Positions 3,696 to 45,574 are shown, numbered from the stretch's first letter. The stretch: DNA of 50,168 nucleotides from an uncultured Leptospirales bacterium (GCA_964514165.1 CAZEPS010000003.1:1-50168), one strand, 5' to 3'. Notes: generated from the sequence alone by a model not told the origin. Numbers and translations: made by a program.

Positions 3696-3841
3696 CAGAA
3701 ATCAGAAGGGTAACCTTATACATACAGAGAAAACTCTTTCAGCAAATACAGGATTTTACCCATAACCAGAAACTCCAGGACGATAGTAACCTCGTTGTCC
3801 AGAAATATACCGGGTACCGATTCGTTTACCGGCAACAGCAG

Positions 3842-4027
3842 TCAAAGGTTCGCGAGTATTGCAAGGGAACCGTGAATTAAGGCTGTAATAAGCAGGGTCA
3901 CCCCGGTTTTCCGATGCACGGTAAACGATACCTTTATTATGCGATACCCGCTCAGGAGCTGAAATATAATCAGCACCATGTTCACGATTCCAAGGATCAG
4001 TATAATTGATACGCCGCCGATAGTCAT
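3842..4027 (-). CDS. small two-helix membrane protein with two conserved-looking His (possible heme-binding partner)
   Basis: 61-aa ORF MTIGGVSIILILGIVNMVLIIFQLL..HRKTGVTLLITALIHGSLAILANL, with two hydrophobic helices and one His at the start of or within each region. The ATG lies 3 nt after the stop of the upstream gene (TGAcccATG), which suggests translational coupling. The competing 92-aa ORF 3756..4034 has non-protein-like composition. Confidence 0.45.
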   Translation of the reverse strand: MTIGGVSIILILGIVNMVLIIFQLLSGYRIIKVSFTVHRKTGVTLLITALIHGSLAILANL

Positions 4028-11000: not shown

Positions 11001-13710
11001 TATCAAGGATCCCGTTCCCCCTGGTGAGGGCGTTGATGCTCGCCCCTCCGCCGACGCGGGTCACGTTAAAGGGATCGTTGAATTCAAAACCGACGTCCTC
11101 CGAGTACCCCGACACCGGGTCCCGGTCCAGGACATTGTTCCTGTTAACATCTTCCGTATCGAACACGCCGTCACCGTCACCGTCCTCGTTAACCGATCCG
11201 AGATCGATATAGAGATCCACGTCGTTAGTTCCATCATAGAGATACGAGATTTCTACATACTGCAGTTCGGAAAAATCAACGGCGCTGTCTGAAAGCTGAC
11301 GGGTGACGATGCTGGCATAGTCCCCATCCCCGTCAAAATCCAAAACCAGGGACCTCTGGTTTTGCGGCGAATGCCCGTACGCCACGTTAAAGGGCCCCGG
11401 TTTGACCCGGTAGGGAATCTTGGAAGCAGGGTAGAGCAGGTTCTGCAGAACCCCGCCGGTTGCCGAGTCCCGGTAGTAGTAATAGTTCAGTATCGATCTC
11501 CTGGTGAGTGGAACCGACGTTGGTTCAGATGAAAGCATCCAGTCGTTTTCACCGAGAGAGATGAACACGGTCTCGTCAGAGGCTTCCATATTGTCGAGAA
11601 GGGCCTTGCCGAAGGTATTGATGTTTTTATAACTCCTGGCGTACTCGGCATATCCCCGTATGTCTACCGGAACGTTTCTTATGGTGCGGGAAGAGAGGCG
11701 GTTCAACACCCTGGCGAGAAATTCCCCGTCAAGATTAAGTTTCGTGTCCCCTTCAACAAGGATTGTCTGTGTCGGTTCGACCCCGGGGTCAGGTATGGTC
11801 TCTGAACTCGCCGACCTGGCGTACAGAAGGCTGCTCCCGAAATTTATCGTGTCGTTGATATTGTAATCCGCCCTGAGCCCCCCCACGAATGAACGGGACT
11901 GGGCCCCGAAGGGAATATACTCATACCGAACCTCGATGACCGTATCCGGGCCAATAAGGGGATTACTCGGGTTCTGGAAGGTGAGAAATCCGGCGGTATA
12001 ATCAATAGTATAGAGGTTCTCCGAAATCTCCCGCTCATTTATCTTGATTCTCACGCTGTCCGGTATGATGTTGAAGTTCCCGAGCTTGAAAGACCGGGAC
12101 TCCCGGTAATAGTCAACCATGATCCTGAACCGGGAATACTGGTAAACAGACTGGGTCTGGTTCTCGGCATATATCCGCTCGGCCGTAGCCGGATCAAGGA
12201 CAGGTTTGAAGGGCTCCCTGAGATAGAATTCGATAATCCCTGAATAATAGAGCACGGAATACTGACCCAGTCCGAGAATTTCGGATTTCGTCATGATCGC
12301 GTTTTCCCTCATGAACGTTATACTGAGGTTGTCTGATAGAAGATTCCTGTCCCCCACGAAATAATTTGACCGGATTTCATAGACATCCAGGTTGACCTTG
12401 CCGTCTCCGTTCCTGTCAGTCTCGCCCGCGTCAAAGGCGAGATTCCTGACGACCGTGTCCTCGTCCAGGGTATGGCCGTATTTAATGAACACGATATTTT
12501 TTCCGGTAAAGACCCCCCCCGGGTGTACCGGGTCCCCGGGGACGATGACCGAGGGGTCTGACGTGGAACCGGTTACCAGGGTGTAGGCGGCGAAGATCCG
12601 CGCCTTGTCCGGTATGTCGATGAGAAACGTGATAACACCGGTCGTGAAATTAATAGAATAGTCCACCCCTGACTGCAGTTTTGAATAAGTGCCGTTGTCT
12701 ATGCTGAGCCGTACCGTGTCTGTCACGGTTTCAGGATTCTGATCGTCCATGTAGAGTTCAAAACCGTTCGGGTTGACGTTAACCGCAAAGGGGCGGTATG
12801 TCTGTGGATTAGCGGGAGCAGATGTGAACACTACCAGGTTGTACGCCGAAGGGCCGGAGGGCGGCGTTGAAAGATTATCATACCGCTTAAAGGGTTCGAT
12901 CTGGTAGTAGGTTTTCTTCAGGTATTGCGCCTCCAGGAGCTTCACGTTCCCGGGTGAGGTGTTCCCCCGAAACTGTTCCACCACCGTGTCACCACGAGCG
13001 ATGCTTCCAAAGGCCTTTAGCCGGAAATTATTTTTTTTCAGGGTGAGGTCGACCCCGAGCCCCTTTGAGGTCGTGTTGTCATACACAGCGTATTTCGAAT
13101 GGTTGAAGTTTATGTCGATTTCGCCGGCATTCAGTTCCTGGATGACCTCGTCGTCCCTCAGGGCCTTGTACTGTATCCGATACCGGTTGTCCTTCCTCCC
13201 GCTGTCATGGTCTATGAAAACCTTGAGGCGGTCACCCACGGTACCTTCCATGAACAGCTTGAAGTCCTGCTCGCCCCTGAATCCGCTCTTCAGAACCTGG
13301 GAGGCAGCCTCGTCGTCCTCATAGTACCGGTATTGGTCCTTGGTGAAAATTGAATCACCGTACACGACATTGAGGTTATAGTCACCATAGCTGGTTATAT
13401 TGATGTCCCGATTGTAATCATATATCACCCGTACCGCATCATCCTGCTCATAGATTTCATACCGGGGATCAATAATATAACTGCTCCAGTCCCCTTTTTC
13501 ATACTGGATACCTCTTTTCGGCTGTGTAATCAGGGTTTCGGTCTCCGGATCAGTGACCACAACCTTCGTGTATTCCAGTGACGATGATGAATCGATATAA
13601 TCGAGAAGCCTGTTCTTGAAAGATTTCTCTTTAGAGGTAGCAATTGATATAAATAGAAGGGAACCGGCAAAAAGAAAAACTGCAATGCATAGAGGAAGAT
13701 ATTTAAGCAT
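8029..13710 (-). CDS. giant (1893 aa) secreted outer-membrane beta-barrel candidate, SprA-like, with thrombospondin-type-3-like Ca-binding repeats
   Basis: N-terminal signal/anchor (MLKYLPLCIAVFLFAGSLLFISIA). Long stretches of alternating beta-strand-like sequence. The C-terminal residue is Phe (..GLNFSLLF), typical of OM barrels. The N-terminal segment DDEVIQELNAGEIDINF..LKAFGSIARGDTVVEQFRG resembles, from memory, the conserved N-region of T9SS SprA. NEDGDGDGVFDTEDVNRNNVLDRD and GNGILDTEDINRNGVLDTIDN are DxDxDG-type repeats. Confidence 0.5.
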   Translation of the reverse strand: MLKYLPLCIAVFLFAGSLLFISIATSKEKSFKNRLLDYIDSSSSLEYTKVVVTDPETETLITQPKRGIQYEKGDWSSYIIDPRYEIYEQDDAVRVIYDYNRDINITSYGDYNLNVVYGDSIFTKDQYRYYEDDEAASQVLKSGFRGEQDFKLFMEGTVGDRLKVFIDHDSGRKDNRYRIQYKALRDDEVIQELNAGEIDINFNHSKYAVYDNTTSKGLGVDLTLKKNNFRLKAFGSIARGDTVVEQFRGNTSPGNVKLLEAQYLKKTYYQIEPFKRYDNLSTPPSGPSAYNLVVFTSAPANPQTYRPFAVNVNPNGFELYMDDQNPETVTDTVRLSIDNGTYSKLQSGVDYSINFTTGVITFLIDIPDKARIFAAYTLVTGSTSDPSVIVPGDPVHPGGVFTGKNIVFIKYGHTLDEDTVVRNLAFDAGETDRNGDGKVNLDVYEIRSNYFVGDRNLLSDNLSITFMRENAIMTKSEILGLGQYSVLYYSGIIEFYLREPFKPVLDPATAERIYAENQTQSVYQYSRFRIMVDYYRESRSFKLGNFNIIPDSVRIKINEREISENLYTIDYTAGFLTFQNPSNPLIGPDTVIEVRYEYIPFGAQSRSFVGGLRADYNINDTINFGSSLLYARSASSETIPDPGVEPTQTILVEGDTKLNLDGEFLARVLNRLSSRTIRNVPVDIRGYAEYARSYKNINTFGKALLDNMEASDETVFISLGENDWMLSSEPTSVPLTRRSILNYYYYRDSATGGVLQNLLYPASKIPYRVKPGPFNVAYGHSPQNQRSLVLDFDGDGDYASIVTRQLSDSAVDFSELQYVEISYLYDGTNDVDLYIDLGSVNEDGDGDGVFDTEDVNRNNVLDRDPVSGYSEDVGFEFNDPFNVTRVGGGASINALTRGNGILDTEDINRNGVLDTIDNVYTVPDTSRTIPGNDVRWKKKRIYIDRSAITRSEVDLLKQVEAVRLYLVKSAGVSGRMYIDEIRFVSSKWKELEIDGSTAAPGEMQVALIDSLSDDEYSREPFHFFQKDLYKSLYGDKSDSDLLLEKETALEITYDLAGGSYVSATRRFSRPIDMRYYKTLNLWMNYRNFTPGDTVCFIIGSSDNDYVEFRFPMDLNRFWREVKLRLKQSSRGEAFPSSITGQPDLKRINFMEIRIYAPGRSGRIWLNDIYLSEAEVVSDQAHWYEGEISITKPLFRTKSGVPVLSDISIKYVQKGHGASFESVGKTNSDIAENYKQVFSSMSILPNWTTFVDFTREESETDSLNEDVIDTKRGATLRDIVYLVSDYDSNINGVPSLKIAYKYDYYDNDLDERISTVALKRYTRNTAHSPLFNVRERIDRFMWGELDLNIDLNLYFKDETIQRFTGLVDLNTLSSLTSLKERDKRQKSQLSIDLNYGNRFFYFNPTMRIESEEIVRMYGKSELNQTEVKYSVNGDYHFPFVYNKDCKYVSRDKRLTAAIGIERRFLVSPEYRIEIQYNEGGFRDYEISEVPFYEFQRSRDVRSEVSTEISIPFNMDKISILEDIKSFNIIYKRSLNLIEKNVPFEGEQEDFFDEQFGPGRSLKGLTDAGLNLFNYYPFYFYGGRKNFANARDYVFHKLNRPIYFANGETVSEYSNQLRIVDDFSSNMTVDLFKASININGGLNQVCERMNLWGVPQQIITGYFQVDVNMEMMKLFGIDPYTPVKVSPDRKSLPGETKEKHRSAFLNLGYRFNRSMIITSNIEEDSHLPQLSFTFKWGRANLGMKFGVDLKQKRFKPYIPFNSFTRSTKDHIYIENMPQFTIYRQDDIGYNFKLAYETEVKWLFDLFSKLYKLVAYPIFFFEYAMEINRASYELTTEPEPYDQHLFTVKLDMDLHKNVRGGFHSRLSLEQFRNRESWNVSREIFSYEVGLNFSLLF

Positions 13711-21072: not shown

Positions 21073-21423
21073 TGGAGACGGCGGGAGTCGAACCCGCGTC
21101 CTGCATTACCATACTCCAGCGTCTACATGCTTATCCTGTTCATTTATTCTCAGCCCTCGGTCCGGGAACAGGCACCGTTCTCAAGGGCCCAGCTCCTGAA
21201 TGTTTCGCCCTTAAACCCGGAGCAGGGTCATCGGGCTATCCCCTGAGTATGACGCTCTTACACATCCCAGAGGAGAGGATTGCATAAGAGCGTAGCAGGT
21301 ATTACGCTGCTAATGCTAAGTTGTCGTTTGCAACTATAATTGTTCTGCCAGTTTAACGAGCTGACAGCGCACTCGGCATGCGACTGAAGCACATCCAATA
21401 CAGTCGAAACCAGAATCGTCCCC
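21073..21423 (-). ncRNA. ssrA: tmRNA (transfer-messenger RNA)
   Basis: On the minus strand the 5' end is GGGGACGATTCTGGTTTCGAC and the 3' end is GGACGCGGGTTCGACTCCCGCCGTCTCCA. The 7-bp acceptor stem includes a G3:U pair. The internal tag reading frame ..GCA AAC GAC AAC TTA GCA TTA GCA GCG TAA encodes ANDNLALAA-stop (plus-strand 21302-21331). CCA is not encoded. Confidence 0.92.
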
Positions 21424-29345: not shown

Positions 29346-31928
29346 CTACTTGATAATGATGCGGGTTCCGTCTGAATCGATTTTTACCTTCTGGTCCTCC
29401 TTCACGCTTCCCTCGAGGAGTTTTACCGACAGGGGATTGAGAAGGTGCTTTTCGATGGCCCGCCTGAGGGGCCGCGCCCCGAAGAGGGGATCGTACCCTT
29501 CAGCCACGATAAAATCCATGGCCTTCTTGGTGATCTCAATCTGGATTCCCCTCTCCCTGAGGCGTAACGTCAGCTCCTGGAGCTGGAGCTTGACAATATC
29601 CTTGATGTTTTCCTTTGAGAGGGGATTGAAGATGATAAGCTCATCTACCCTGTTTAAAAACTCCGGCTTGAAGTGGTTTTTCAGCTCTGCCTCCACCCCC
29701 TTCTTCCGCTCATCGTAGGGGATAGATGCGTCGCTGATATATGACGTCCCGATGTTGGATGTCATAATGATCAGGGCGTTCTTGAAATCCACGACCCGGC
29801 CCTTGGAATCGGTGAGACGACCGTCATCGAGGATCTGCAGAAAGATGTTGAAAACGTCGTTGTGGGCCTTTTCGATCTCGTCAAAAAGGACCACAGCGTA
29901 GGGGCGCCGCCGTATCGACTCGGTCAGCTGGCCCCCCTCTTCGTATCCGACGTAGCCGGGGGGCGCCCCGATTAGCCGGGCCACGGAATGCTTCTCCATG
30001 TACTCGGACATGTCGATGCGGATGATTGCCTTCTCGTCATTGAACATGAACCCGGCCACTGCCTTGGCTGTCTCAGTCTTCCCGACCCCGGTGGGCCCGA
30101 GGAAAATGAATGACCCCACCGGCCTGTTCGGGTCCTGGATCCCGGAACGGGACCTGCGCACCGCGTCAGAAATCGACTGAAGGGCCTCGTCCTGCCCCAC
30201 GACACGCTTCGACAGCTGTTTCTCCATGGCAAGGAGCTTGTCCTTCTCCCCTTCGAGCATCTTCGAGACCGGGATGCCGGTCCACCGTGAAACCACCTGG
30301 GCTATCTCATGTTCGGTGACCTCCTCCTTCAAAAGGAGGGGATTGAACTCGTGCATCTCTTTCATTTTTTTGTTCAGGGACTCCAGCTTCTTTTCCAGTT
30401 CAACGATTTTCCCGTACCGTATCTCCGCCACCCGGTTCAGGTTCCCCTCACGTTCCGCCCGCTTTTCCTCGACGTGAAGGTTTTCAATCTCTTCCTTAAT
30501 TTTGCGGATCTCGAGAATAATGCTCTTCTCGTTTTTCCACTGGGCCATGAGGCCGTTCTTCTTCTCGTTCAGGTTCGCCAGGGACTCCTCGATTTTTGCG
30601 AGGCGTTCCTTTGAGGCCTTGTCCTTCTCCTTCTTCAGGGCCTCCTTCTCAACGGTTAGCTGGCGTATCCGCCGCTCAATCTCGTCGATTTCAATCGGCA
30701 TGGAGTCGATCTCCATTTTGATGAGAGACGCGGCCTCGTCGATGAGGTCCACGGCCTTGTCCGGAAGAAACCGTTCGGTGATATACCGGTTCGACAGCAC
30801 CGCGGCTGACACGCACGCAGCGTCCGAGATCCGTACCCCGTGGTGCACCTCGTACTTTTCCTTGAGCCCCCGGAGAATGGCGATAGTGTCGTCAACCGTA
30901 GGTTCGCTCGTGAACACCGGCTGGAAGCGCCGTTCCAGGGCCTTGTCCCTCTCGATATACTTCCGGTACTCGTCCAGAGTCGTGGCCCCGATGCACCGGA
31001 GGGAACCACGGGCAAGGGCCGGTTTCAGCATGTTCGACGCATCCACCGCCCCCTCGGCCGCCCCGGCCCCCACCAGGGTGTGGAGCTCATCAATGAAAAG
31101 GACCACCTCTCCGGCCGATTCCTCCACCTCCTCGATGACCGCTTTGAGCCGCTCTTCGAACTCGCCCCGGTATTTCGCCCCGGCGATGAGAGCGGCCATG
31201 TCCAGGCTCACGAGCCTCTTGTTCTTGAGATTTTCCGGCACGTCCCCCCCCACGATGCGCTGGGCGAGGCCCTCCACGATGGCGGTTTTTCCTACCCCGG
31301 GCTCTCCGATAAGCACCGGGTTGTTCTTTGTCCGCCTGGTGAGCACCTGCATGACCCGGCGAATTTCCTCGTCCCTGCCGATGACCGGGTCAAGCCTGTT
31401 CATGCGGGATAGCTTCGTCAGATCACGGCTGAACCGGTCCAGGGCGTTGTAATGGTCCTCGGCGCTCTCGGAGTCGGCCCGCTTCGTGCCGCGGATATCT
31501 TTCAGTATCCTCAGTATGTTTTCCCGGTTGAAACCGTGGGCGTTAAGAATCTGGCGGGCCTTACCCTGGCCCTTGGATACCAGCCCCAGGATCAGGTGTT
31601 CCGTGCTAAGGTATTCATCCCCGAGACCGACGGCCTGGTTCCAGCCCTCATTCAGGAGATCCCTCATCTCGCCGGAAAGAGCGCCACCCCCCGGGCCTGC
31701 ACCAACCTGCCGGGGGAGTGAATCCAGGGCTGAATCGACTTCACGCCGTATCTCAAATGAGGAAACACTCAGCTTCTGGGCAATCGACTCAAAGATGCTC
31801 CCCTCCTGTTCGATGATCGCCTTCAGTAAATGCTCAGGCTGTATCTCGTAGTGGTTGAGATCAGTTGCTATATTCTGCGCCGTGTTCACGGCGTCCTGTG
31901 CCTTAAGGGTCAACTTGTCCATTCTCAT
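29346..31928 (-). CDS. clpB: ATP-dependent chaperone ClpB
   Basis: 860 aa. Two AAA+ modules (GEPGVGKT and GPTGVGKT Walker A) separated by a long coiled-coil middle domain. Clp N-domain repeats are present. Confidence 0.96.
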
Positions 31929-33936: not shown

Positions 33937-34016
33937 GAGACATAATATTTTTATTGACTTTCTATATTACCGTTTTATTATATACTCAGTTAGCAAACAG
34001 ATATTATGTCTCATTA
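33937..34016 (+). promoter_or_regulatory. candidate nrdD promoter (TTGACT-16-TATTAT) bracketed by a 12-bp inverted repeat
   Basis: GAGACATAATAT (33937-48) and ATATTATGTCTC (34001-12) are perfect reverse complements. TTGACT lies at 33954-59 and TATTAT at 33976-81. TTATGTCTCATTA is at 34004-16 and a related TTATCTGACATTT at 34033-45. Confidence 0.45.
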
Positions 34017-34129: not shown

Positions 34130-36163
34130 ATGGGTGAAGATATCCATACAAATTATATACGCAAAAGGGACGGCCGGGTCGTCCCTTTTAAACTCGAAAA
34201 AATAACTGATGCAATCTTCAAAGCTGCCCAGGCAGTGGGGGGGAGCGACAAGGAGACTGCCCTGTCAGTATCCAATTCCGTAATGGGAATAATCAGCATC
34301 CTCTTTAAAGATGGAAGGATCCCTACCGTTGAGAACGTACAGGACCTGGTCGAGAAGATGCTCATCGAACGGGGCCACGCCAAGGTCGCCAAGGCATACA
34401 TCCTCTACCGCGAACAGCACCGGAAAATACGGGAGGGCAAGAGCCTCCTCAATGAAGGCCTCAGGCTCATCGACGACTATCTGGATCAGTCAGACTGGCG
34501 GGTCAACGAAAACAGCAACATGAGCTTCTCCCTCCAGGGCCTGAATAACCATATTGCCTCCGCCATAACCGCCAAATACTGGCTTGAACGAATCTATCCC
34601 CCGGAGATACGGGACGCCCACGTCAACTGCGACTTTCACATACACGACCTTGGACTTCTCTCTGCCTACTGCGTCGGATGGGACCTCAGGGACCTGCTCC
34701 TGAAGGGATTTTCCGGGGTTCCGGGAAAGGTAGAAAGCAGCCCGGCGAAACATTTCCGCAGCGCCCTCGGCCAGGTGGTAAACTTTTTCTACACCCTCCA
34801 GGGTGAATCCGCAGGCGCCCAGGCCTTCGCGAATTTCGATACCTACCTGGCCCCCTTTATCTACTACGACCAGCTCACCTACGCTGAGGTAAAACAGTGT
34901 TTGCAGGAATTCATATTCAACATGAACATTCCGACCAGGGTCGGTTTCCAGACCCCTTTCACGAACATTACCCTGGACCTGACCGTTCCCTCTAACATTA
35001 CATCAGAATACGTCATCGTCGGGGGAGAGCCCCATGACCGCACCTACGGGGAATTTCAGAATGAGATGAACATGTTCAACGATGCCTTTGTTGAATGCAT
35101 GATCGAGGGTGACGCGAAAAACCGGATCTTCACCTTCCCTATACCGACCTACAACCTCTCCCGGGAGTTTAACTGGGACGACGAGAGCCACACAAAGCTC
35201 TGGGAGATGACGGCCAAGTACGGCATCCCCTATTTTGCCAATTTTATCAATTCCGACATGGATCCGGAGGACGCGCGTTCCATGTGCTGCCGCCTCAGGC
35301 TTGACAACCGGGAACTCCGTAAACGGGGGGGCGGGCTTTTCGGCGCCAACCCCCTCACCGGCAGTATCGGGGTCGTGACCATAAACATCCCGAGAATCGC
35401 GTACAATGCGGATACCGAGGAAAGCTTCTTCAGCCGACTCGACGAACTCATGAACCTGGCCAAAGCATCTTTGGAAACCAAGCGGAAAACCCTGGAAAAT
35501 TTCACGGCCAGCAACCTCTATCCCTACACAAAATACTACCTCAGGGACATCTACCAGAGAAACAAGAAATACTGGATTAATCATTTTTCAACAATAGGAC
35601 TGGTCGGTATGAACGAGGCATGCCTGAACTTCCTCGGGACAGATATCTCGTCCGCTGAAGGAAAGGATTTCACCATAAAGGTCCTGGATTTCATGCGAGA
35701 GAAGATTCTTCGGATCCAGGAAGAAACCGGCAGTCTTTACAATCTCGAAGCCACCCCGGCGGAGGGAGTCACCTACCGCTTTGCCAAACACGACAGACAG
35801 ACCTGTCCCAACATCAAGACAGCCGGTATCTCCGAGCCCTATTATACCAATTCGGTTCATCTCCCCGTCGGCCATACAGACGATCCCTTTGACGTTCTCG
35901 ACCACCAGGATGATCTCCAGAACCGGTTTACCGGGGGTACTGTGGTTCACCTGTTTCTCGGAGAAAAAATTGACGCCCCGAACACCGTTAAGAGCCTGAT
36001 ACGAAAGATCGCTGAAAATTATTCGCTCCCTTATTTCACCATTACCCCGACCTTCAGCGTCTGTCCCATACACGGGTATATAGCGGGGGAGCACAAGTAT
36101 TGTCCCTATGACCATTCAGAAGATGAATTGCTGAAATTCGGCATTGAAGTTGAAACTGATTAA
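34130..36163 (+). CDS. nrdD: anaerobic ribonucleoside-triphosphate reductase (class III), large piece lacking the glycyl-radical segment
   Basis: ATG at 34130 preceded by GGAG (the track starts at GTG 34118). ATP-cone N-terminus (IRKRDGRVVPFKLEKITDAIFKA). Conserved NrdD core (CCRLRLD, GGLFGANPLTGSIGVVTIN, NLEATPAEG). It ends ..FSVCPIHGYIAGEHKYCPYDHSEDELLKFGIEVETD-stop, before any RVxGY motif. Confidence 0.9.
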   Translation: MGEDIHTNYIRKRDGRVVPFKLEKITDAIFKAAQAVGGSDKETALSVSNSVMGIISILFKDGRIPTVENVQDLVEKMLIERGHAKVAKAYILYREQHRKIREGKSLLNEGLRLIDDYLDQSDWRVNENSNMSFSLQGLNNHIASAITAKYWLERIYPPEIRDAHVNCDFHIHDLGLLSAYCVGWDLRDLLLKGFSGVPGKVESSPAKHFRSALGQVVNFFYTLQGESAGAQAFANFDTYLAPFIYYDQLTYAEVKQCLQEFIFNMNIPTRVGFQTPFTNITLDLTVPSNITSEYVIVGGEPHDRTYGEFQNEMNMFNDAFVECMIEGDAKNRIFTFPIPTYNLSREFNWDDESHTKLWEMTAKYGIPYFANFINSDMDPEDARSMCCRLRLDNRELRKRGGGLFGANPLTGSIGVVTINIPRIAYNADTEESFFSRLDELMNLAKASLETKRKTLENFTASNLYPYTKYYLRDIYQRNKKYWINHFSTIGLVGMNEACLNFLGTDISSAEGKDFTIKVLDFMREKILRIQEETGSLYNLEATPAEGVTYRFAKHDRQTCPNIKTAGISEPYYTNSVHLPVGHTDDPFDVLDHQDDLQNRFTGGTVVHLFLGEKIDAPNTVKSLIRKIAENYSLPYFTITPTFSVCPIHGYIAGEHKYCPYDHSEDELLKFGIEVETD

Positions 36164-36230
36164 TGCCGATAAAGATAACAGGCGGTGATCCGTTCACTGC
36201 CGCCAATAGAAAAATTTTAGGAGTGAAGAC

Positions 36231-36395
36231 ATGAGGAAAAAAGAGATGAAGGTTCCTGTTGAGGTATATTCACGGGTGGTCGGTTACTTCAGGCCGGTTA
36301 ACCAGTGGAACAAAGGGAAGAGAGAAGAATTCATCGAGAGAAAAGTATATACCGTGGAAAGCACTCCTGTGTATGAATATCAGGGGAATCTATAA
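36231..36395 (+). CDS. 54-aa ORF carrying the NrdD glycyl-radical motif
   Basis: Not in the track because it is under 60 aa. AGGAG lies 6 nt upstream of the ATG. The product is MRKKEMKVPVEVYSRVVGYFRPVNQWNKGKREEFIERKVYTVESTPVYEYQGNL. The RVVGYFRPV..WNKGK..EF..R signature normally forms the C-terminus of NrdD. The reading frame differs from nrdD, and the ORF overlaps the nrdG start by 23 nt. Confidence 0.75.
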   Translation: MRKKEMKVPVEVYSRVVGYFRPVNQWNKGKREEFIERKVYTVESTPVYEYQGNL

Positions 36396-37071
36396 AACCT
36401 CGTTAATCGATTACCCCGGTAAAATCTGTACGGTCTTATTCAGCGGCGGCTGCAACCTCAGGTGCCGGTACTGTCACAACCGGGACCTGGCGTGCAACAG
36501 CGACAGTCTCCCTCACTATACCAGCGAAGAAGTCCTGAATTTTCTGGCTTCGCGGAAACACCTCATCGAAGGGGTTACCCTCTCCGGGGGGGAGCCGACC
36601 CTGTCTGATGATATCTACCAGTTTGCCGCCTCCATAAAGGATTACGGCCTGTCAGTAAAGATCGACACCAACGGATTGAAACCGGACACGTTGGCCCGTC
36701 TTATCGAACGGGGCCTGGTCGATTATATCGCACTGGATGTCAAGACCTCACCGGACAAATATCCCGATCTGGCTGGAACCACCGTCGATTTTACCCTTAT
36801 AAAAAATACGGTATCTGTTCTCAAATCCGGGGACATTGATTACGAGATACGGACCACCTGTGTCCCCGGTTACGTTACCGGGGAAGATCTCTCAATCATC
36901 GGCAATCACATCGGCCCTGTGAAAAGATACTACCTCCAGCAGTTCAGGGCCGCCGGGGACCTTATCGATGAATCCCTGGGGGTCCTGCAGCCCTACCCGG
37001 TATATGTCCTCGATGAGTTCTGTAAAAGGGTGCTCAATTTTTCCGATTATTGCGCCATCCGGGGAAGATAA
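36373..37071 (+). CDS. nrdG: anaerobic ribonucleotide reductase activating protein (radical SAM)
   Basis: MNIRGIYKTSLIDYPGKICTVLFSGGCNLRCRYCHN (CX3CX2C) and GVTLSGGEPT. Track ORF 36259..37071 has an artefactual N-terminal extension that reads across the glycyl-radical ORF in another frame. Confidence 0.88.
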   Translation: MNIRGIYKTSLIDYPGKICTVLFSGGCNLRCRYCHNRDLACNSDSLPHYTSEEVLNFLASRKHLIEGVTLSGGEPTLSDDIYQFAASIKDYGLSVKIDTNGLKPDTLARLIERGLVDYIALDVKTSPDKYPDLAGTTVDFTLIKNTVSVLKSGDIDYEIRTTCVPGYVTGEDLSIIGNHIGPVKRYYLQQFRAAGDLIDESLGVLQPYPVYVLDEFCKRVLNFSDYCAIRGR

Positions 37072-37124: not shown

Positions 37125-37868
37125 ATGGCTGATACTTTCCGAAAAACCATAATTCCAACGCACACTATGAACAGGTTAGATATTCTCAAGAAAATATTCC
37201 AACCTTTTGACAGAATACATCAGTCACTGGGAACAGCCTGCATCGAGCTTGTTGATCTCAGTGGCGGGTCTCCTGCTTCCCTGTATAAAAAAACCTACGA
37301 TGACATGTTCACTCCCCTTGATTTTAAACAGGTTATCGAACAGGGCCCCATTAATAGTATTACTGAACCAGCCTTTCTAACCCTGAAGGCGAATGACGAA
37401 AAGGATATCCACTGTTCTGTCAGCCCGGTCGTTACGGAAAATGAAACAATCGCGCACCTGATAACCTGGCACAGGGAACCGGTTGCTGAACAGAGCAAAC
37501 CCCTCCTTGCCTACGCATCAGGGGTCCTTTCACTTCTGGCGGATATCCCCGCCGGGGAAGACCCCGCCCATACCGGGGATCACCGGTACAAGGAAGAGCT
37601 CATGAAAATGAGGAACATCCTGAAAGACATCACCCTCCAGCTCGAACCCGGGGACGCCCTCTTCTACTCTTCCACCGGGGCGAAGAGCGTCACATCAGAG
37701 GACGGTGCCATGATATTCGGGGAAGACCGGCTCATCCAGCACTTCATTAAAAACATGCAGAGCCCCTCCCTCGAAATTGTCCACAACCTGACCGACACCC
37801 TGTACGAGTTTTCCAACTATTGCCAGAACGAGAACGACATCCTGCTGTTGAGCGTAAAAAAGGGATAG
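37125..37868 (+). CDS. hypothetical protein with a SpoIIE/PP2C C-terminal-like tail that lacks catalytic motifs
   Basis: LQLEPGDALFYSSTGAKSVTSEDGAMIFGEDRLIQHF..NDILLLSVKKG parallels the last ~70 aa of SpoIIE phosphatases (GDxLLLYTDG..FGxxRL..DDITLL), but the Asp residues are replaced. No GGDxxD or DVxGHG region is present. The start is uncertain (TTG 37050, ATG 37125 or ATG 37167). Confidence 0.4.
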   Translation: MADTFRKTIIPTHTMNRLDILKKIFQPFDRIHQSLGTACIELVDLSGGSPASLYKKTYDDMFTPLDFKQVIEQGPINSITEPAFLTLKANDEKDIHCSVSPVVTENETIAHLITWHREPVAEQSKPLLAYASGVLSLLADIPAGEDPAHTGDHRYKEELMKMRNILKDITLQLEPGDALFYSSTGAKSVTSEDGAMIFGEDRLIQHFIKNMQSPSLEIVHNLTDTLYEFSNYCQNENDILLLSVKKG

Positions 37869-37876
37869 GAGATGCC

Positions 37877-38353
37877 ATGGCGGAAATAACGCTCCTCAAC
37901 GACCACCCGGAATTCGCCCCAATACTCGGCCACTGGTCTTACATGTTATGGTACCGCCACCGGGACATCAACTTTCCCACGGTGATGAAATCATACCTCC
38001 AGCGCGCGAAAAACGATATACCTCCCCTCTGCTACGTCGCGGTAGAGGACACCGCCCCGGTCGGCATGGCAACCCTGAAAAACGACGACCTATGGTCCCG
38101 AAAAGACCTCAATCCCTGGCTCGCGTCACTCTACGTGCTTGCCGACTGCCGGAAAAAGGGGATTGCCGGCGAGCTGATAAACGCGGTTCTGACAAAGGCG
38201 AGGGAACTCGGTTTCGGCAGGGTATTTCTCTTCCTCGGCCAGGAGGAGCAGGACCGCCTCGTTGACTTTTACGAGTCGCGGGGATGGGAATTCTACGAGG
38301 ATGCCCTGGACAACGACGGGCTTCCCACCAGGATTTATTACCGGGACCTGTAA
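37877..38353 (+). CDS. GNAT-family N-acetyltransferase
   Basis: ATG at 37877 preceded by AGGAG. The acetyl-CoA motif is LYVLADCRKKGIAGELINAV (R/QxxGxG/A). 158 aa. Confidence 0.75.
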   Translation: MAEITLLNDHPEFAPILGHWSYMLWYRHRDINFPTVMKSYLQRAKNDIPPLCYVAVEDTAPVGMATLKNDDLWSRKDLNPWLASLYVLADCRKKGIAGELINAVLTKARELGFGRVFLFLGQEEQDRLVDFYESRGWEFYEDALDNDGLPTRIYYRDL

Positions 38354-38362
38354 CCCTTTCCG

Positions 38363-40666
38363 CTACATCGACGAGGTATTGATGATGAAGCGGACCGAAT
38401 TTTCATCGATCATCAGCTTCTTTGAGATCTCGTCGGAGCTCCACCCCTTGTCCGAGAGATCACGCACGGTTTTCACGATGTTCTCGTTCAGGTTCTTCCC
38501 CTGGCCCCCCCCCGGTTTAACCTGTTTCATGATAGGATTGTTTTTGTCAACCACCTGGAGAAAGTCGGCGAACTGTTTCATCTTCCTGTCGGTTTCATTG
38601 AACATGGTCTGCAGTTTCGTGTCGGTGTCGTCGATGTCCTTCCGAAGCGACTCCATCTTCTGGAACATGGCGTAGATCTGCTTGATACGCTCTTCCAGGT
38701 GTATCGAGAGGCCGTCGAGTTCGCTGAACTTGTCCTTGACCTCCTGGATGTCGTGCTCCCGGGTTTTCAGTATAAGGGTGTTTTCCTCCACCTCCTGGAG
38801 GTGTTTGGTAAGCTTGTCTATCCGTTTGTCAGATCTCTCCAGTATATTCTGGAAGGACTTGATCCGCGAGTCGATGGCCTGGGTGACGATTTCCGCCCTG
38901 TTCGCGGATTCCAGGTTTTTGGTAATCACGTCCTCGTACTCCCTGAGCTCCTCGACCCGGGTGTCGAGATCGGTATAACTCCTCGACAGGGCGTCAATCT
39001 TGGACTGGATCGCGTCGATGCGTGAGATGTTCTCCTGCAGTTCTTCGGAACGGTGCATGAAATGATCGCTCAGATCCATGAGTCCGCGGATCTCGCTCTC
39101 AAAATCAGAGAGCATTTCCCGCTTGCCCTGGTACGCCCTGATCTCCCGGTCCATGGTCTTCCTCATGTCCTTAATCTCCTCAACGTCACCAAGGAACTTG
39201 TCATACATATCAGACTGGTTCTGGACGTCGTTCAGCATCCCCTGGAGGCGGGAAATCGATCCCTCCACCTTCTGGACCATGTCATCGGTCCTGCTAAAGA
39301 TTTCCGTGCTCTTTTCAAACTGCTCTATTTCGCCCTTCACCTCGTCAACACGTTTTTCCATCAGCGAGAATTCCCTCCTGACCTCCTCCATGTAATTAGT
39401 GACCGTGCTGTCGAACCGGTTTTCATAGGAATTGAGCCGGTCGGTAAGGGTGCTGAACCTGATCTCGATGCCCTGGTATTCCGACTCAATGTGCTCGATC
39501 TTGTCCTCGGCGGTCTTGACAAGACGGCTTTCAAGCTCGACAAACTTGTCCTCGAAATCACCGATTTTGTTCATGATCTCTTCAGCTTCCTTGCGGGTCG
39601 CCTGTACGATTTCATCCTTCTTGGAAATAGCGTGTATGCTCAGGTTGTCAAGCTCTGTCCTGACCTTGCTGACCTCCTTTTCGAAGGTCTTGATGAGCCT
39701 CTCCTTGGACTCGTCCACGTTACGCTCGACGCTGTTGAGCTTGCCGTAGACGTGGCCGACATCCTGCTCCAGCTTCTCGAAGAGCTTTTCCTTGTCGCTG
39801 TCAAAGTCTGAAAGGGTTTTGCTTATCTCGTTCTTTATTTCGCCGGAACGGACCTTCAGGTCCGAGAATACGCTGTTCTCCAGGTCGGACATGGTCTTTT
39901 TAAGTTCGTTGAGCTGCACACTCAGGGTGGAGGCCCCCTCAATGGACAGGGCCACGGTGTCGACCTCTTTCTTGAAGTTCTCGAAGATAATCTCACCAGT
40001 ATCGGTGAGACGCTGTTCCATGTTCGACAGGGATGCCGAGAACTTGTTCGAGAGTTCCGTCAACCGTTTGTCCGTGTTCTCGATGAGCCGGCTTTCCTTG
40101 TCCCGTATCTGTTCGCTCACGGAACCGGCCTTGTCCGACATCTCTGCCGTGAAATCACGGTACTTGTCATTCAGCTTCTTGTTAAAGGTTGACATGAGCT
40201 GGGAGGTCTCACCATGCATATCGGAGAGTTTCTTCTGCATCTGGCTAATCGATTTTCCCATGTCCGTGAAGTTCTTCCTGGTCTCGGCCAGGAACTCAAT
40301 CTGCTGGTTCACGTCATTGGCGGCGTGGCTGATAAGCTGGATGTCCTCCTCCACCTTTTTCAGCTGCAGCTTTTCGACGTCAAGTCCATTGAGCCGCTCC
40401 TCCACCTCGACAAGGGAGTCCTTGAGCCCGCCGGTAAGGGCGTGGGTCCTCTTGATGAGGATGTCCATCTCGATGGTGGCGTCCTTAAACCTGCGGTTTT
40501 CGTTTTCAGCGAGCTTCTTGAATTCATCGAAGATCTTCGTGGAATACCGCTTCAGCTTGGCCATCCGCATGTTTGATTTATCCAGCCTGCGGAAGAGGAG
40601 CAGCATGCCTGCGCACACAATGAATGTGGCAATATTTAATATCATTGTTGTATCTCCCATATACAT
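38363..40666 (-). CDS. membrane-anchored long coiled-coil protein with C-terminal HTH-like segment
   Basis: 767 aa. One N-terminal TM helix (ILNIATFIVCAGMLLLF), then about 650 aa of heptad-rich E/K/L sequence. The C-terminus KTVRDLSDKGWSSDEISKKLMIDENSVRFIIN resembles a sigma-region-4/LuxR-type helix-turn-helix. Confidence 0.6.
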   Translation of the reverse strand: MYMGDTTMILNIATFIVCAGMLLLFRRLDKSNMRMAKLKRYSTKIFDEFKKLAENENRRFKDATIEMDILIKRTHALTGGLKDSLVEVEERLNGLDVEKLQLKKVEEDIQLISHAANDVNQQIEFLAETRKNFTDMGKSISQMQKKLSDMHGETSQLMSTFNKKLNDKYRDFTAEMSDKAGSVSEQIRDKESRLIENTDKRLTELSNKFSASLSNMEQRLTDTGEIIFENFKKEVDTVALSIEGASTLSVQLNELKKTMSDLENSVFSDLKVRSGEIKNEISKTLSDFDSDKEKLFEKLEQDVGHVYGKLNSVERNVDESKERLIKTFEKEVSKVRTELDNLSIHAISKKDEIVQATRKEAEEIMNKIGDFEDKFVELESRLVKTAEDKIEHIESEYQGIEIRFSTLTDRLNSYENRFDSTVTNYMEEVRREFSLMEKRVDEVKGEIEQFEKSTEIFSRTDDMVQKVEGSISRLQGMLNDVQNQSDMYDKFLGDVEEIKDMRKTMDREIRAYQGKREMLSDFESEIRGLMDLSDHFMHRSEELQENISRIDAIQSKIDALSRSYTDLDTRVEELREYEDVITKNLESANRAEIVTQAIDSRIKSFQNILERSDKRIDKLTKHLQEVEENTLILKTREHDIQEVKDKFSELDGLSIHLEERIKQIYAMFQKMESLRKDIDDTDTKLQTMFNETDRKMKQFADFLQVVDKNNPIMKQVKPGGGQGKNLNENIVKTVRDLSDKGWSSDEISKKLMIDENSVRFIINTSSM

Positions 40667-40870: not shown

Positions 40871-42871
40871 TCACCCCGACCTGACCAGGCTCCGGGAGAG
40901 AACTTCTTCTATTCTTTTTCGGGCTATGAAGAGCCCCCGGTCATGGGCCCTTTCCTCGTGGTATCCGGGAATGTGAACCAGGCGGAAATGCTGTTCCTCC
41001 GGGACCATCTCTTCCATGTCATCAACTATGATGTTCTCCTCCACCGGGATTGAGCAGCGCCGAAGATCCTTCACCGAGCCGTCGCTCCCCCTGGGCCAGT
41101 CTATATACTCGTAGCGTTCCAGAAAATCTTCGGTTATACTTCCCGTATCAGCGAGGTGCGTGAAAACCTCCCTGCTTTCATCAGCGTCGAGAAGGGTATA
41201 GACGCATACCCGGTCAAACCTCGAAAGGCAGTATTCGATGAAATCCCCCAGACCGGGACGGGAAACCATATCGTAATAGTTCGTGACCAGGGTCCCCTCG
41301 ATGTCCAGGGTCAGAGCACTCTGCACCGCGACCCTGAGCGGCTTCAGGTGATCGATCCCATCCCGCGCGCTCTTGAAACTCTCTTCCGGTCGGGGGGCCA
41401 GACACTGGTCAAAGAAGCCGTGAAATTCGTGAGGAATTGCCTTTTCAGCGGCAACCTCCTCCATGGACCGGAGAATTCTCCCTGAAAGCATCTGCCCGAA
41501 AACCACGGCCAGGGAAAAGAGATCGCCCTGGACCGAGGGGATGCTCCCGGCCACCAGATCCGGGGACATGTATTCCCTTGTTCCCGCCGGAGCCCCCCTG
41601 CTGTACGGCTCTTTCGAGTCCATGAAATTATGGGCGATCCCGAAATCGATGAGCCTGATCTCCCCCTTCTCGTTGAAGAGTATGTTGTCCGGCTTGATGT
41701 CATTGTGGGCAATCCCCCGGTCATGGATAGCGGCGAGTATGTCGAGAAGGTTTATCACGATATCTTTCGCCTTCATCGCGTTAATGACCCCGCTATCCTC
41801 CAGGAAATCGTTGAGTGAACCGCCCCCCATGTAGTCCTGTTCATAGACAAGTCCTTCGCCCGGGAAATCCCCGGGCCGTGGTCGCACCACGCCGTCATGT
41901 TCAATCCCGGCTGAGAATTTCTGTTCATTCACAAACCGCCAGTAATTCTCGTCAAATCCCCCCATGTCGCTTTTGTAGGTCTTCAGAATGACCCGTTTCC
42001 CCTTTTTCCTGTTCTCGGCAATGTATACGTCGGAAAGGCCGCCGCGCCAGATAAGCCCCTCGATACAATAGGGCCCCTTCTCCTCGCTGTCACTGAAACG
42101 CACCGGGGGCTCTTTGATGAGCCCGAGAATTCTCGAATCACCATCGAGCATTCCCCGAACAGGCCTCCCCTGGTCTTTGAACGGGACCACCCGTGAGGGT
42201 GTACCCGGAATTCCGTCCTCCCGGTAGATCCCGTTCCAACCCTCAATTCTTCGAAGAACATACAGGTGTCCCAGGGGTTTATCCCTTTCCCGGTGCCATA
42301 TAAGAAGGGGATTGAGGGAAATATACCCGCCGGTCTCAGCATCGACAAGGAGGACCGTTCCCGAATGAAGCCGTCGGTATTCGCGATCACGTTCCTCCCA
42401 GACCAGGTACTCGACACGGGGGCCCATAAGCACCCTGAAACCATAGGGTTCGACAATAACAAGGCGGTACCGGGCAAGGTAGTCGAGGGTGGAAAGGGCC
42501 TGGAAAAGGGTTTCCCTGGCCGGGAGGGCGCTCCCCCCGAGAATTCCCGCGAGCTGGAGCAGGCCGGTTCCGGGTTTGCCGGAAGTTTCCCGTGGAAAGG
42601 GGGAGCCGGGAAGGTCCATTTTGAAATCATTATAAGATGGAGGATTTACCGACAGGGATGAATCCGTACAGAGGAGGTTCGCCTGCCTGACGGCTGCCAG
42701 AAAACGCACCGCGGTGCCCGCGCACCAGGAAACCTTGCAGTGTATCTCGTCCTCGTATTCCGAAAAGCTGACCATCTCGTAAGCCCGGGAAACAGGCCTC
42801 GGCAGGCGGTACCTGACAATAAATTCTCTTTTGAAATGATCAAGCATTAATATCTGATTTTTAATTGACAA
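40871..42871 (-). CDS. Ser/Thr protein kinase fused to an unknown N-terminal domain and a C-terminal HAD/FCP1(NIF)-like domain
   Basis: 666 aa. The Hanks kinase motifs are GLIWRGGLSDVY, RVILKTY, HNDIKPDNILF, DFGIA and EYMSPD. The C-terminal LTLDIEGTLVTN plus NIIVDD resemble HAD motif I and the FCP1/SCP family, but read DxE instead of DxD. The start is TTG 42871 or ATG 42847. Confidence 0.75.
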   Translation of the reverse strand: MSIKNQILMLDHFKREFIVRYRLPRPVSRAYEMVSFSEYEDEIHCKVSWCAGTAVRFLAAVRQANLLCTDSSLSVNPPSYNDFKMDLPGSPFPRETSGKPGTGLLQLAGILGGSALPARETLFQALSTLDYLARYRLVIVEPYGFRVLMGPRVEYLVWEERDREYRRLHSGTVLLVDAETGGYISLNPLLIWHRERDKPLGHLYVLRRIEGWNGIYREDGIPGTPSRVVPFKDQGRPVRGMLDGDSRILGLIKEPPVRFSDSEEKGPYCIEGLIWRGGLSDVYIAENRKKGKRVILKTYKSDMGGFDENYWRFVNEQKFSAGIEHDGVVRPRPGDFPGEGLVYEQDYMGGGSLNDFLEDSGVINAMKAKDIVINLLDILAAIHDRGIAHNDIKPDNILFNEKGEIRLIDFGIAHNFMDSKEPYSRGAPAGTREYMSPDLVAGSIPSVQGDLFSLAVVFGQMLSGRILRSMEEVAAEKAIPHEFHGFFDQCLAPRPEESFKSARDGIDHLKPLRVAVQSALTLDIEGTLVTNYYDMVSRPGLGDFIEYCLSRFDRVCVYTLLDADESREVFTHLADTGSITEDFLERYEYIDWPRGSDGSVKDLRRCSIPVEENIIVDDMEEMVPEEQHFRLVHIPGYHEERAHDRGLFIARKRIEEVLSRSLVRSG

Positions 42872-43915: not shown

Positions 43916-45574
43916 ATGGAGAATAAGAGATTAATCCTGGCTGTGGCACTGTCAATCGCTGTATGGGTTGGATGGTACCTCATATTCAAGCCTGAAACCG
44001 GGCAGCATAAGACAGAACCGGTCGCGGTAGAGGAACAGGCCGCGGAGAAAACCGAACAGGACCTGCCGGTTCCGACGGACAAAAGGAGTAGCGTTTCAAT
44101 TTCAGTTCCGAAAAGGGGGGCCGATGGCGATGAAAAACTGATTTCCCTTGAGACAGAAAAATTCAGCGCAAACCTGACCACCCGCGGGGCCGCGGTTAAA
44201 TCCCTCCTTTATAAAGAACGGAATATCAACCTGGTGGTTGAAGAGAGTTCCCTTGATACCAGGGGGGCCCTCGGCTTTTCGATACATTTTGATGAAAACG
44301 AATTCATAAAGGGCAACGACCTTGACACGGTTAACTGGTCCTATCGGAAAACGAATGAAGGGGGCGTTGCCTTTTATACCACCCTCTCCATAAACGGGGT
44401 TCCGGTTCAGATCGAAAAAATCTATTCCCTCATACCTGACAGTTATTCGATGAATATCGAATACCGTTTCACCAATACCGGCAGGGAAGAACTCACCATG
44501 AGTGGCGGCACGGTCATAATCTCGCCGTCGGACATTATCGGACCTGACCTTGACCTTACTAACCGATACAACGATCTTGCCGGTTTCTACTACTCAGACA
44601 ACGACTTTGACAAGTTCAGCAAGGGGGGGTTCTTCTCGGAAAAGGGACCGGTGAAAAAAGAGGCGGGTTCCATCGACTGGTACGGCCTCATGAGCAGGTA
44701 CTGCCTGGTAATCATGATACCGAAGGATTTCTCCGGCAACGGGGTAATCTACGATAACCGTAAAGGGGCCGGGGCCAGGACCGGGATGTACATCGACGTC
44801 AAGAACATCAGTCCTGCAGAGACGGTTGAAAAGGCCTTCACGGTATACCTTGGCGAGAAGGACAAGAAAAAGCTCGCCACCATCGACAAGACTCTCACCA
44901 CGGCGGCTGACATCAGCAGGTGGATAGAACCGATACGTTTCATTGTCATCTGGAGCCTGCTGCACCTGAACGACCTGATCGGAAACATGGGATGGTCCCT
45001 GGTAATCTTTTCACTGATTACCAAGATCATATTCATGCCACTGACCATCAAGTCAACCGAGTCGATGAAACGAATGCAGAAGCTCACTCCGAAAATGAAC
45101 GAGATCAAGGCCAAGTACAAGGACAAGCCCGAGATCATGCAGAAGGAGATGATGAAGCTCTACAAGGACAACAAGGTAAACCCGATGGGGGGATGCTTCC
45201 CGCTCCTGCTTCAGATGCCGTTTTTTATCGCACTCTACAGCGCCCTCATAAACTCGATAGACCTGTGGAACGCGCCCTTCATACTCTGGATCAGGGACCT
45301 GTCGATGCCGGACACCATCGCGACCATATCCGGCTTTAACCTGAACATCCTTCCCATATTGATGACTGTCACGAGTTTTCTCCAGCAGAAACTCACAACG
45401 GTCGATACCGGCGGACAGCAGCAGAAGATGATGATGATGATGATGCCGGTGATTCTTATATTCATATTCTGGAACATGCCCTCCGGGCTGGTCCTTTACT
45501 GGGCCCTCCAGAATATTTTCCAGGTTTTACACCAGATTATAACAAACTGGAGAGCTAAACTCAAGGAAAGTTGA
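43916..45574 (+). CDS. yidC: membrane protein insertase YidC
   Basis: 552 aa. N-terminal TM helix, large periplasmic domain, then the conserved core (GWSLVIFSLITKIIFMPLT, KVNPMGGCFPLLLQMPFFIALY, PSGLVLYW). Confidence 0.93.
   Translation: MENKRLILAVALSIAVWVGWYLIFKPETGQHKTEPVAVEEQAAEKTEQDLPVPTDKRSSVSISVPKRGADGDEKLISLETEKFSANLTTRGAAVKSLLYKERNINLVVEESSLDTRGALGFSIHFDENEFIKGNDLDTVNWSYRKTNEGGVAFYTTLSINGVPVQIEKIYSLIPDSYSMNIEYRFTNTGREELTMSGGTVIISPSDIIGPDLDLTNRYNDLAGFYYSDNDFDKFSKGGFFSEKGPVKKEAGSIDWYGLMSRYCLVIMIPKDFSGNGVIYDNRKGAGARTGMYIDVKNISPAETVEKAFTVYLGEKDKKKLATIDKTLTTAADISRWIEPIRFIVIWSLLHLNDLIGNMGWSLVIFSLITKIIFMPLTIKSTESMKRMQKLTPKMNEIKAKYKDKPEIMQKEMMKLYKDNKVNPMGGCFPLLLQMPFFIALYSALINSIDLWNAPFILWIRDLSMPDTIATISGFNLNILPILMTVTSFLQQKLTTVDTGGQQQKMMMMMMPVILIFIFWNMPSGLVLYWALQNIFQVLHQIITNWRAKLKES

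Follow-up and report, generated by a model that had tools for sequence, protein, structure and literature searches.

Can a class III ribonucleotide reductase (RNR) do its work when the segment that bears its glycyl radical is encoded by a gene of its own? This question is raised by the nrdD-nrdG locus in a 50,168-nucleotide (nt) stretch of DNA from an uncultured Leptospirales bacterium (GCA_964514165.1 CAZEPS010000003.1:1-50168; hereafter, the window). In the catalytic protein NrdD, the barrel encloses the glycyl loop, which lies next to the finger-loop cysteine, and NrdG abstracts a hydrogen from the loop glycine. In the window, the large nrdD open reading frame (ORF) ends ahead of this loop, and a separate gene of 54 codons, placed between the large ORF and nrdG, supplies it. 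Our results make it quite likely that the two genes specify a working class III RNR composed of two polypeptides, whose radical subunit acts in trans and is probably exchangeable.

Anatomy and conservation of the split nrdD gene

A preliminary description of the window had proposed that nrdD is split and that its glycyl-radical segment forms a small gene. Its sequence statements and coordinates were re-read directly in the window sequence and all hold, including the stop of the large ORF at 36163, the gap that follows, the AGGAG sequence, the ATG at 36231 in another frame, and the overlap of the small ORF with the start of nrdG. The large ORF ends in ...CPIHGYIAGEHKYCPYDHSEDELLKFGIEVETD (within the longer stretch ...YCPYDHSEDELLKFGIEVETD) and is closed by TAA at 36161-36163. 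Its true start is most likely the ATG at 34130, which has GGAG upstream, and gene callers also return 677 amino acids (aa). The small ORF, whose frame differs from that of the large ORF, encodes MRKKEMKVPVEVYSRVVGYFRPVNQWNKGKREEFIERKVYTVESTPVYEYQGNL and stops at 36393-36395.

Together, the two ORFs account for a complete NrdD protein. They tile the 562 positions of the Pfam NRDD model with no part missing (1-531 in the large ORF, 532-562 in the small), and the 684 positions of NCBIfam NF006126 are matched collinearly (3-654 in the large ORF, 650-683 in the small). In the alignment with Thermotoga maritima NrdD, the large ORF reaches residue 605 and the small ORF starts at residue 610 (610-644), which places the break in the short linker that leads from the last metal ligand to the strand entering the radical glycine. 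As judged from these alignments, the chain is broken within the 13 to 16 residues that separate the last metal ligand from the radical glycine. In other glycyl radical enzymes, the linker before the radical domain is a hinge, and the domain swings out to reach the activase.

The large ORF is a homolog of the NrdD barrel (Pfam NRDD, E = 5.5e-181; NF006126, 1041.8 bits against a cut-off of 548) that also matches the Pfam ATP-cone, and its matches in the PDB are the NrdD structures 8p23, 9d3x, 4coi, and 1h78. The finger loop RSMCCRLRL is present; S384, M385, C386, L389, and R390 are invariant in 120 sequences, R383, C387, and R388 are shared by at least 90% of them, and C386 and C387 are both invariant in an alignment of 12 sequences. 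The RVxGY glycyl-radical motif, missing from the 677-aa chain, is found in trans on the 54-aa ORF as SRVVGYFRP, and no second glycyl-radical motif was found elsewhere in the window. Judged by its sequence, the enzyme qualifies as a class III RNR on all points open to testing, apart from the radical motif, which lies in trans. The adjacent NrdG matches TIGR02495 (NrdG2; 196.6 bits against a cut-off of 131.15) as well as Pfam Radical_SAM and Fer4_12, and carries the motif CNLRCRYCHN. Current annotation labels both fragments "anaerobic ribonucleoside-triphosphate reductase" or overlooks the small one.

The small ORF, which covers the loop and the short C-terminal stretch that ordinarily inserts into the barrel, matches positions 532-562 of Pfam NRDD at 36.8 bits (cut-off, 26.2). 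This is its sole Pfam match; the Gly_radical family (PF01228), which represents the C terminus of pyruvate formate-lyase, gave none at E <= 0.01. Homologs of the small ORF number 758, the top 120 of which are all 48-89 aa long, and the radical glycine and the entire loop motif are retained in the small proteins of all lineages, including those encoded by phages without a large-subunit gene.

Compared with canonical NrdD and NrdG (those of T4, Escherichia coli, and T. maritima; PF13597, TIGR02487, and NF006126), the locus has the same barrel, ATP-cone, cysteine finger loop, RVxGY loop, and order of elements, and the same adjacent radical S-adenosylmethionine (SAM) activase. It differs in that the chain is interrupted after the metal site and before the glycyl loop, with the radical on a separate 54-aa protein, in that approximately 15 residues have been added to the tail of the large subunit and approximately 10 to the N terminus of the small one, and in that the second metal pair is of a Spirochaetota type, C-x3-H, whereas the canonical pair is C-x2-C. 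The candidate ligands C645, H648, C658, and H662 are invariant in the 120 sequences, and the metal site of the Spirochaetota clade is thus predicted to be Cys-His-Cys-His, compared to the four cysteines of T4. The preliminary description was right about CPYDH in place of CPxC. A link between this altered site and the split is not supported, as the split forms of DPANN archaea, Patescibacteria, and phages retain CPxC.

Scanning one genome for each species, we obtained 80 loci. All Spirochaetota loci with 76-80% identity whose sequence continues past the large stop are split at the same point, as is L027, and the split is common to some 28 Spirochaetota species genomes. The preliminary description had reasoned that unsplit close relatives would point to a pseudogene or an error; the relatives are all split, and the two-ORF arrangement is conserved across the whole Spirochaetota clade. 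Their gaps measure 30-188 nt, the frame of the small gene is offset by 0, 1, or 2 relative to that of the large gene, and in nearly every split locus the small gene has its own ATG and an upstream GGAG-type site. In a collection of 5.8 billion proteins, the 120 large-subunit clusters nearest to this one all measure between 672 and 713 aa and none has a glycyl-radical segment, and hundreds of independent assemblies or protein clusters hold both pieces (NCBI, JGI, ENA, and Logan). Among 26 loci, the core of the small gene has a proportion of nonsynonymous differences (pN) of 0.13 against a synonymous proportion (pS) of 0.83, with a median ratio of nonsynonymous to synonymous rates (dN/dS) of 0.047; the median dN/dS of the tail of the large gene is 0.095. 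Both pieces are under strong purifying selection. Together with the profile tiling and the conservation across the clade, this confirms that the glycyl-radical segment is a gene of its own.

Split genes in other lineages and orphan small genes in viruses

In loci of Woesearchaeota, Iainarchaeota, and Dojkabacteria, the break occupies the same point; CPxC is retained in them, and their small genes, which represent a second type of stand-alone peptide, begin MKTKCEVYSRVVGYIRP. A search with a small peptide of this type returned 397 proteins, and the top 120, all 39-73 aa long, come from Nanoarchaeota, Diapherotrites, Aenigmarchaeota, and Patescibacteria. Contigs of Patescibacteria and DPANN archaea display the gene order (nrdR-) large - small - nrdG, and in cellular genomes the small gene always adjoins nrdG. 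In a third variant (L030, 3363-3698), the small protein measures 111 aa and has a CxxC...CxxC zinc ribbon of its own in front of the radical loop; it is encoded between a truncated nrdD and nrdG, and its loop reads GF, not GY. An exhaustive HMMER search of 1.84 billion representatives yielded 3089 hits, and the best 150, from distinct 50%-identity clusters, are all 47-109 aa long. The split class III RNR of the window is one member of a large and apparently undescribed class.

In a bootstrapped neighbor-joining tree, the Spirochaetota split clade has 100% support, the split genes of DPANN archaea and the candidate phyla radiation group with an unsplit clade (84%), and the monophyly of all split genes has 0% support. 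This topology calls for either a single old fission followed by a re-fusion, or fission on several separate occasions.

Small genes were also found in viruses. A scan of IMG/VR with the small-subunit alignment gave 181 confirmed matches, the best 80 of which were kept, and the phage contigs were examined to ±3 kb and then to ±10 kb, a total of 1.2 Mb. The radical motif could be located in 78 loci, and in 73 of these it is part of a short ORF. An NrdD large subunit is encoded within ±10 kb in 6 of the 80 loci, leaving 74 without one, and NrdG is encoded within the same distance in 2, leaving 78 without it. In L086, for example, a 53-aa small gene (3001-3162) is located near genes for a terminase large subunit and a phospholipase, and in L097 the small gene (2980-3144) follows an amidase (endolysin) gene; the two neighborhoods differ, and the downstream genes do not encode radical-SAM proteins. 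Genes for portal, terminase, tail-spike, or primase proteins were recognized with PHROGs in 8 of the 10 orphan loci sampled. When viral sequences were scanned separately with the large-subunit alignment, three contigs were shared with the small-gene list, none of them an orphan, and no orphan contig occurs among the 80 best viral contigs encoding a large subunit. Archaeal virus ANMV-1 (KP703175; L245, 4680-5114) encodes an orphan 144-aa "NrdD" of the third form, which consists of a Zn ribbon and the radical loop. In the GenBank phage collection there were two matches only, this orphan and one unsplit NrdD-thioredoxin fusion.

The viral large genes comprise approximately 47 unsplit and at least 13 split ones. 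The split ones have the small gene immediately beside the large one, 1.7-2 kb downstream of it, or upstream of it. L294 (777-905 versus 2501-3979), L282, and L320 are examples of the two distant placements, and adjacency is therefore not required. With their invariant glycine and full loop motif, the orphans are best understood if the peptide can act in trans on a protein encoded elsewhere. They are the best evidence at hand for an exchangeable radical peptide, and they lend unexpected, indirect support to the GrcA-like replaceable peptide that the preliminary description had proposed.

As a separate observation on viral nrdD genes, the tblastn match to the ~650-aa large subunit spans ~2.9-3.0 kb, not ~2.0 kb, in L291, L306, L312, L314-L318, L320, L321, L323, and L325. 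This suggests an insertion of ~1 kb (an intron, an intein, or a homing-endonuclease gene) inside these genes.

Proposed function of the two pieces and the competing explanations

How might the two pieces cooperate? The small subunit would be translated from its own ribosome-binding site. NrdG, translationally coupled to the small gene, would install the radical on Gly18, and the 54-aa peptide would dock non-covalently in the barrel of the large subunit and hand the radical to the finger-loop cysteine, as in a single-chain NrdD. O2 cleaves the chain of a glycyl radical enzyme at the radical glycine. Because the radical carrier is a separate protein, the small subunit would be replaceable; it could be supplied or replaced in trans, and only 54 residues would have to be remade after O2 cleavage. 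Phages would exploit this exchangeability by carrying the small gene alone.

Several points weigh against this proposal. Binding, activation of Gly18, nucleotide reduction, exchange, and a selective advantage of the two-piece enzyme are steps that we infer, and the case for exchange and repair draws on analogy and on the phage orphans. In the window the large and small genes share one operon, with no promoter detected for the small gene itself, and this arrangement suggests a subunit of fixed stoichiometry more than a separately regulated gene such as grcA. When the large and small subunits were concatenated for AlphaFold2, the mean predicted local distance difference test (pLDDT) score was 66.5 with 119 large homologs (below 50 at 371-410, 640-662, and 669-731) and 49 with 8 large and 37 small homologs; MAFFT misplaced the small peptides once more than 8 large homologs were included. 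In both runs the score was below 50 at the metal site, the finger loop, and the small subunit, and docking gains no structural support from them. Finally, the phage orphans could be decoys or serve an undetected partner. A distant or remote large gene is also possible, as the view extended to ±10 kb and the large-subunit hidden Markov model is best for this NrdD subfamily.

Known systems provide partial parallels. GrcA/YfiD and T4 Y06I, autonomous glycyl-radical spare parts for pyruvate formate-lyase, receive their radical from the cognate activase and serve the large enzyme in trans (PMC12338860, PMC13450708). The likeness lies in a small stand-alone protein with a glycyl-radical loop and in phage-encoded copies of both, and it would extend to action in trans. 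GrcA is a homolog of the C terminus of pyruvate formate-lyase (Pfam Gly_radical), whereas the 54-aa peptide is a homolog of the C terminus of NrdD; moreover, GrcA backs up an enzyme that has its own radical domain, whereas the 54-aa peptide is the sole radical domain of its enzyme in cells. In the class II RNR of Pseudomonas aeruginosa, NrdJa/NrdJb, the chain is likewise encoded by two adjacent genes of an operon with a C-terminal module on the second polypeptide, and both proteins are required (PMC4520616). That enzyme belongs to the B12-dependent class, and the 229-aa NrdJb carries a redox-active cysteine tail and a Zn-finger, not the radical site. The class I NrdA of Aeromonas phage Aeh1 is also encoded by a gene in pieces and is functional as a non-covalent complex (PMC3267527); it is split in the barrel by a homing-endonuclease gene, whereas the Spirochaetota gap holds no gene and the cut isolates the radical loop. 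BssABC and 4-hydroxyphenylacetate decarboxylase are glycyl radical enzymes with small extra subunits, but in these the radical glycine is on the large chain and the small subunits are accessory, whereas here the small subunit is the radical carrier.

The preliminary description had suspected that such an arrangement is new for NrdD, and in the full text of open-access papers and bioRxiv we found no description of a split class III RNR or of an NrdD-type spare part. A split class III enzyme goes unmentioned in the large phylogenetic surveys of RNRs, and according to a June 2026 review, spare-part proteins are known for no glycyl radical enzymes other than the formate lyases (PMC13450708). If our reading is true, the spare-part strategy against oxygen damage extends beyond pyruvate formate-lyase, and the published view of NrdJa/b as the sole split RNR in cellular organisms would have to be revised. 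The exposure and re-insertion of the loop in glycyl radical enzymes are poorly understood, and a loop that occurs naturally as a free protein could offer a system for studying docking, activation, and radical hand-over. In metabolic reconstructions of Spirochaetota, DPANN archaea, and Patescibacteria, truncated NrdDs may be mistaken for pseudogenes or counted as complete enzymes, and the phage orphans point to a previously unrecognized auxiliary metabolic gene of ~50 codons.

These observations raise the possibility, which we put forward tentatively, that NrdD-type radical peptides (40-110 aa) are widespread exchangeable protein cofactors, the RNR counterpart of GrcA. Such a peptide would be a consumable that is charged by NrdG and replaced after oxidative cleavage or loss of the radical, and phages and archaeal viruses would carry it alone to sustain the anaerobic supply of deoxynucleoside triphosphates in the host.

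Could the split instead be the outcome of neutral gene fission, giving a permanent, obligate complex that acts like a single-chain NrdD, with no benefit and no exchange, while the phage orphans serve another purpose? The location of both genes in one operon with no separate promoter and with a coupled nrdG next to them is what such a complex would show, and the tree is compatible with fission and re-fusion in no obvious ecological pattern. Split genes are, in addition, common in the reduced genomes of DPANN archaea and Patescibacteria (for Nanoarchaeota, see PMC3655853). However, orphans with an intact radical glycine in at least 74 phage loci without a large subunit are difficult to explain unless the peptide acts in trans with a host protein, and the split has either been kept or arisen repeatedly in three widely differing groups, as well as in phage nrdD genes, where the small gene is sometimes 2 kb away or upstream. 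We therefore regard neutral fission as rather unlikely.

It is considerably less plausible that the small protein serves as a regulator or as a decoy, for example by titrating NrdG or obstructing the large subunit, the latter having another radical source or another function. Phage orphans could in principle interfere with the nucleotide metabolism of the host, and the Cys-His-Cys-His metal site of the large subunit is altered. Against this, the large subunit retains every catalytic hallmark except the glycine loop, the 50-kb window offers no other glycyl-radical motif, the radical glycine and whole loop motif are invariant in all lineages, and in cellular genomes the small gene always lies beside nrdG.

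We also considered whether a single polypeptide is still made, by programmed frameshifting, by translational bypass of the T4 gene 60 type over the 67-nt gap, by stop readthrough, or by RNA or protein splicing. GTTGAA and GTTGAG flank the gap, a hairpin follows the stop, and T4 nrdD contains a group I intron. However, the gap (which can also be an overlap) and the frame offset vary among close relatives, and cases that happen to be in frame still have stops. Bypass would call for matched take-off and landing codons, a fixed gap, and no separate initiation signal, but the ATG and Shine-Dalgarno sequence of the small gene are conserved. The mini-ORF that begins at TAATG and spans the gap lacks such conservation. 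A self-splicing intron would need far more room than the gap provides, the gap has no Rfam match, and neither piece has an extension of intein size. Because gap length and frame offset vary and the small genes have their own ATG and GGAG, frameshifting, readthrough, and gene-60-type bypass are excluded along with sequencing error, and a single product is highly improbable. In a lone window, a stop and a frame change near the 3' end of a gene are the classic signature of an indel error, but an assembly or sequencing artifact or a decaying pseudogene can be dismissed: the same architecture recurs in ~30 independent species-level genomes and hundreds of protein clusters, with synonymous sites saturated and the protein sequence conserved.

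The spacer and other features of the window

The positions of the elements of the locus are given in Table 1.

TABLE 1 Elements of the nrdD-nrdG locus, numbered from the first nucleotide of the window
Feature	Position	Strand	Basis
Candidate sigma-70-like promoter of the operon, TTGACT-16-TATTAT, ~150 nt 5' of nrdD	33954..33981	+	Consensus scan, 10/12 matches; pattern match only
nrdD large subunit, 677 aa: ATP-cone, catalytic barrel with SMCCRLRL finger loop, C-x2-H...C-x3-H metal site; without glycyl-radical segment	34130..36163	+	Pfam/NCBIfam profiles
Spacer between the nrdD pieces, 67 nt	36164..36230	+	Direct reading
GC-rich hairpin GGCGGTGA-TCCGT-TCACTGCC; TGCCGAT motif ahead of it, directly after the stop codon	36181..36204	+	Predicted fold
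Shine-Dalgarno sequence AGGAG of the small gene, 7 nt before ATG 36231	36219..36223	+	Direct reading
nrdD small subunit, 54 aa: glycyl-radical loop SRVVG18YFRP and C-terminal helix region	36231..36395	+	Pfam NRDD 532-562
nrdG, radical-SAM activase; start overlaps the last 23 nt of the small gene	36373..37071	+	TIGR02495, Pfam

The GC hairpin to which the preliminary description had drawn attention can form and is present once in the window. Energetically it does not stand out (z = -1.4, from the window sequence alone), and having no T-run, it is not a classical terminator. Neither a promoter-like nor an intrinsic-terminator-like site was found in the spacer, and no Rfam family matches the spacer of the window or of L001. 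Relatives have a hairpin at the same position, and TAA-TGCCGAT after the large stop is conserved in L001, L002, L003, L007, L010, L015, L017, L024, L025, L028, and L050. The common stem of the relatives is GGGGnATCCG-ACATAAT-nCGGnCCCC, from which the stem in the window differs in sequence while occupying the same position; several loci have a second hairpin, CCCTCCCC/GGGGAGGG. The element occurs once per locus, mostly without a T-run, and may act in processing, stability, or attenuation to set the ratio of large to small subunit.

Two further candidates in the spacer were rejected. Covariation of the hairpin was not supported, as the consensus hairpin in one subclade displays sequence conservation and not compensatory change. 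A relay mini-ORF (TAATG...ATGA) coupling the two genes is present in the window and L001, and elsewhere it has 3-4 codons or is absent.

The junction had also been read as looking like an insertion of ~100 nt. A recent insertion does not agree with the range of gap lengths among relatives and the saturation of synonymous sites, both of which indicate that the split is ancient. The tail of the large subunit (..L-K-F-G-I-E-V..) resembles the N terminus of the small one (..M-K-V-P-V-E-V..), where unsplit relatives have a single EV(Y). This likeness of GIEV and PVEV, conserved at the protein level, is more readily reconciled with a short, old duplication at the break than with an insertion, although this is speculation, and one could equally speculate about a strand-strand contact between the GIEV tail and the PVEV N terminus.

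The remainder of the window is ordinary chromosome, with genes for ClpB (29346-31928), a thiolase, YidC (43916-45574), and a GNAT protein (37820-38353). A transfer-messenger RNA gene on the minus strand (21073-21423) specifies the tag peptide ANDNLALAA. Three other minus-strand genes were noted: a 1893-aa ORF (8029-13710) with no Pfam match at E <= 0.001; a 767-aa protein (38363-40666) that is highly charged and coiled-coil-like, with an N-terminal hydrophobic segment and weak, non-specific Pfam matches; and a 666-aa protein (40871-42871) in which a Ser/Thr protein kinase domain and a C-terminal NIF/CTD-like phosphatase domain form an unusual pairing on one chain.

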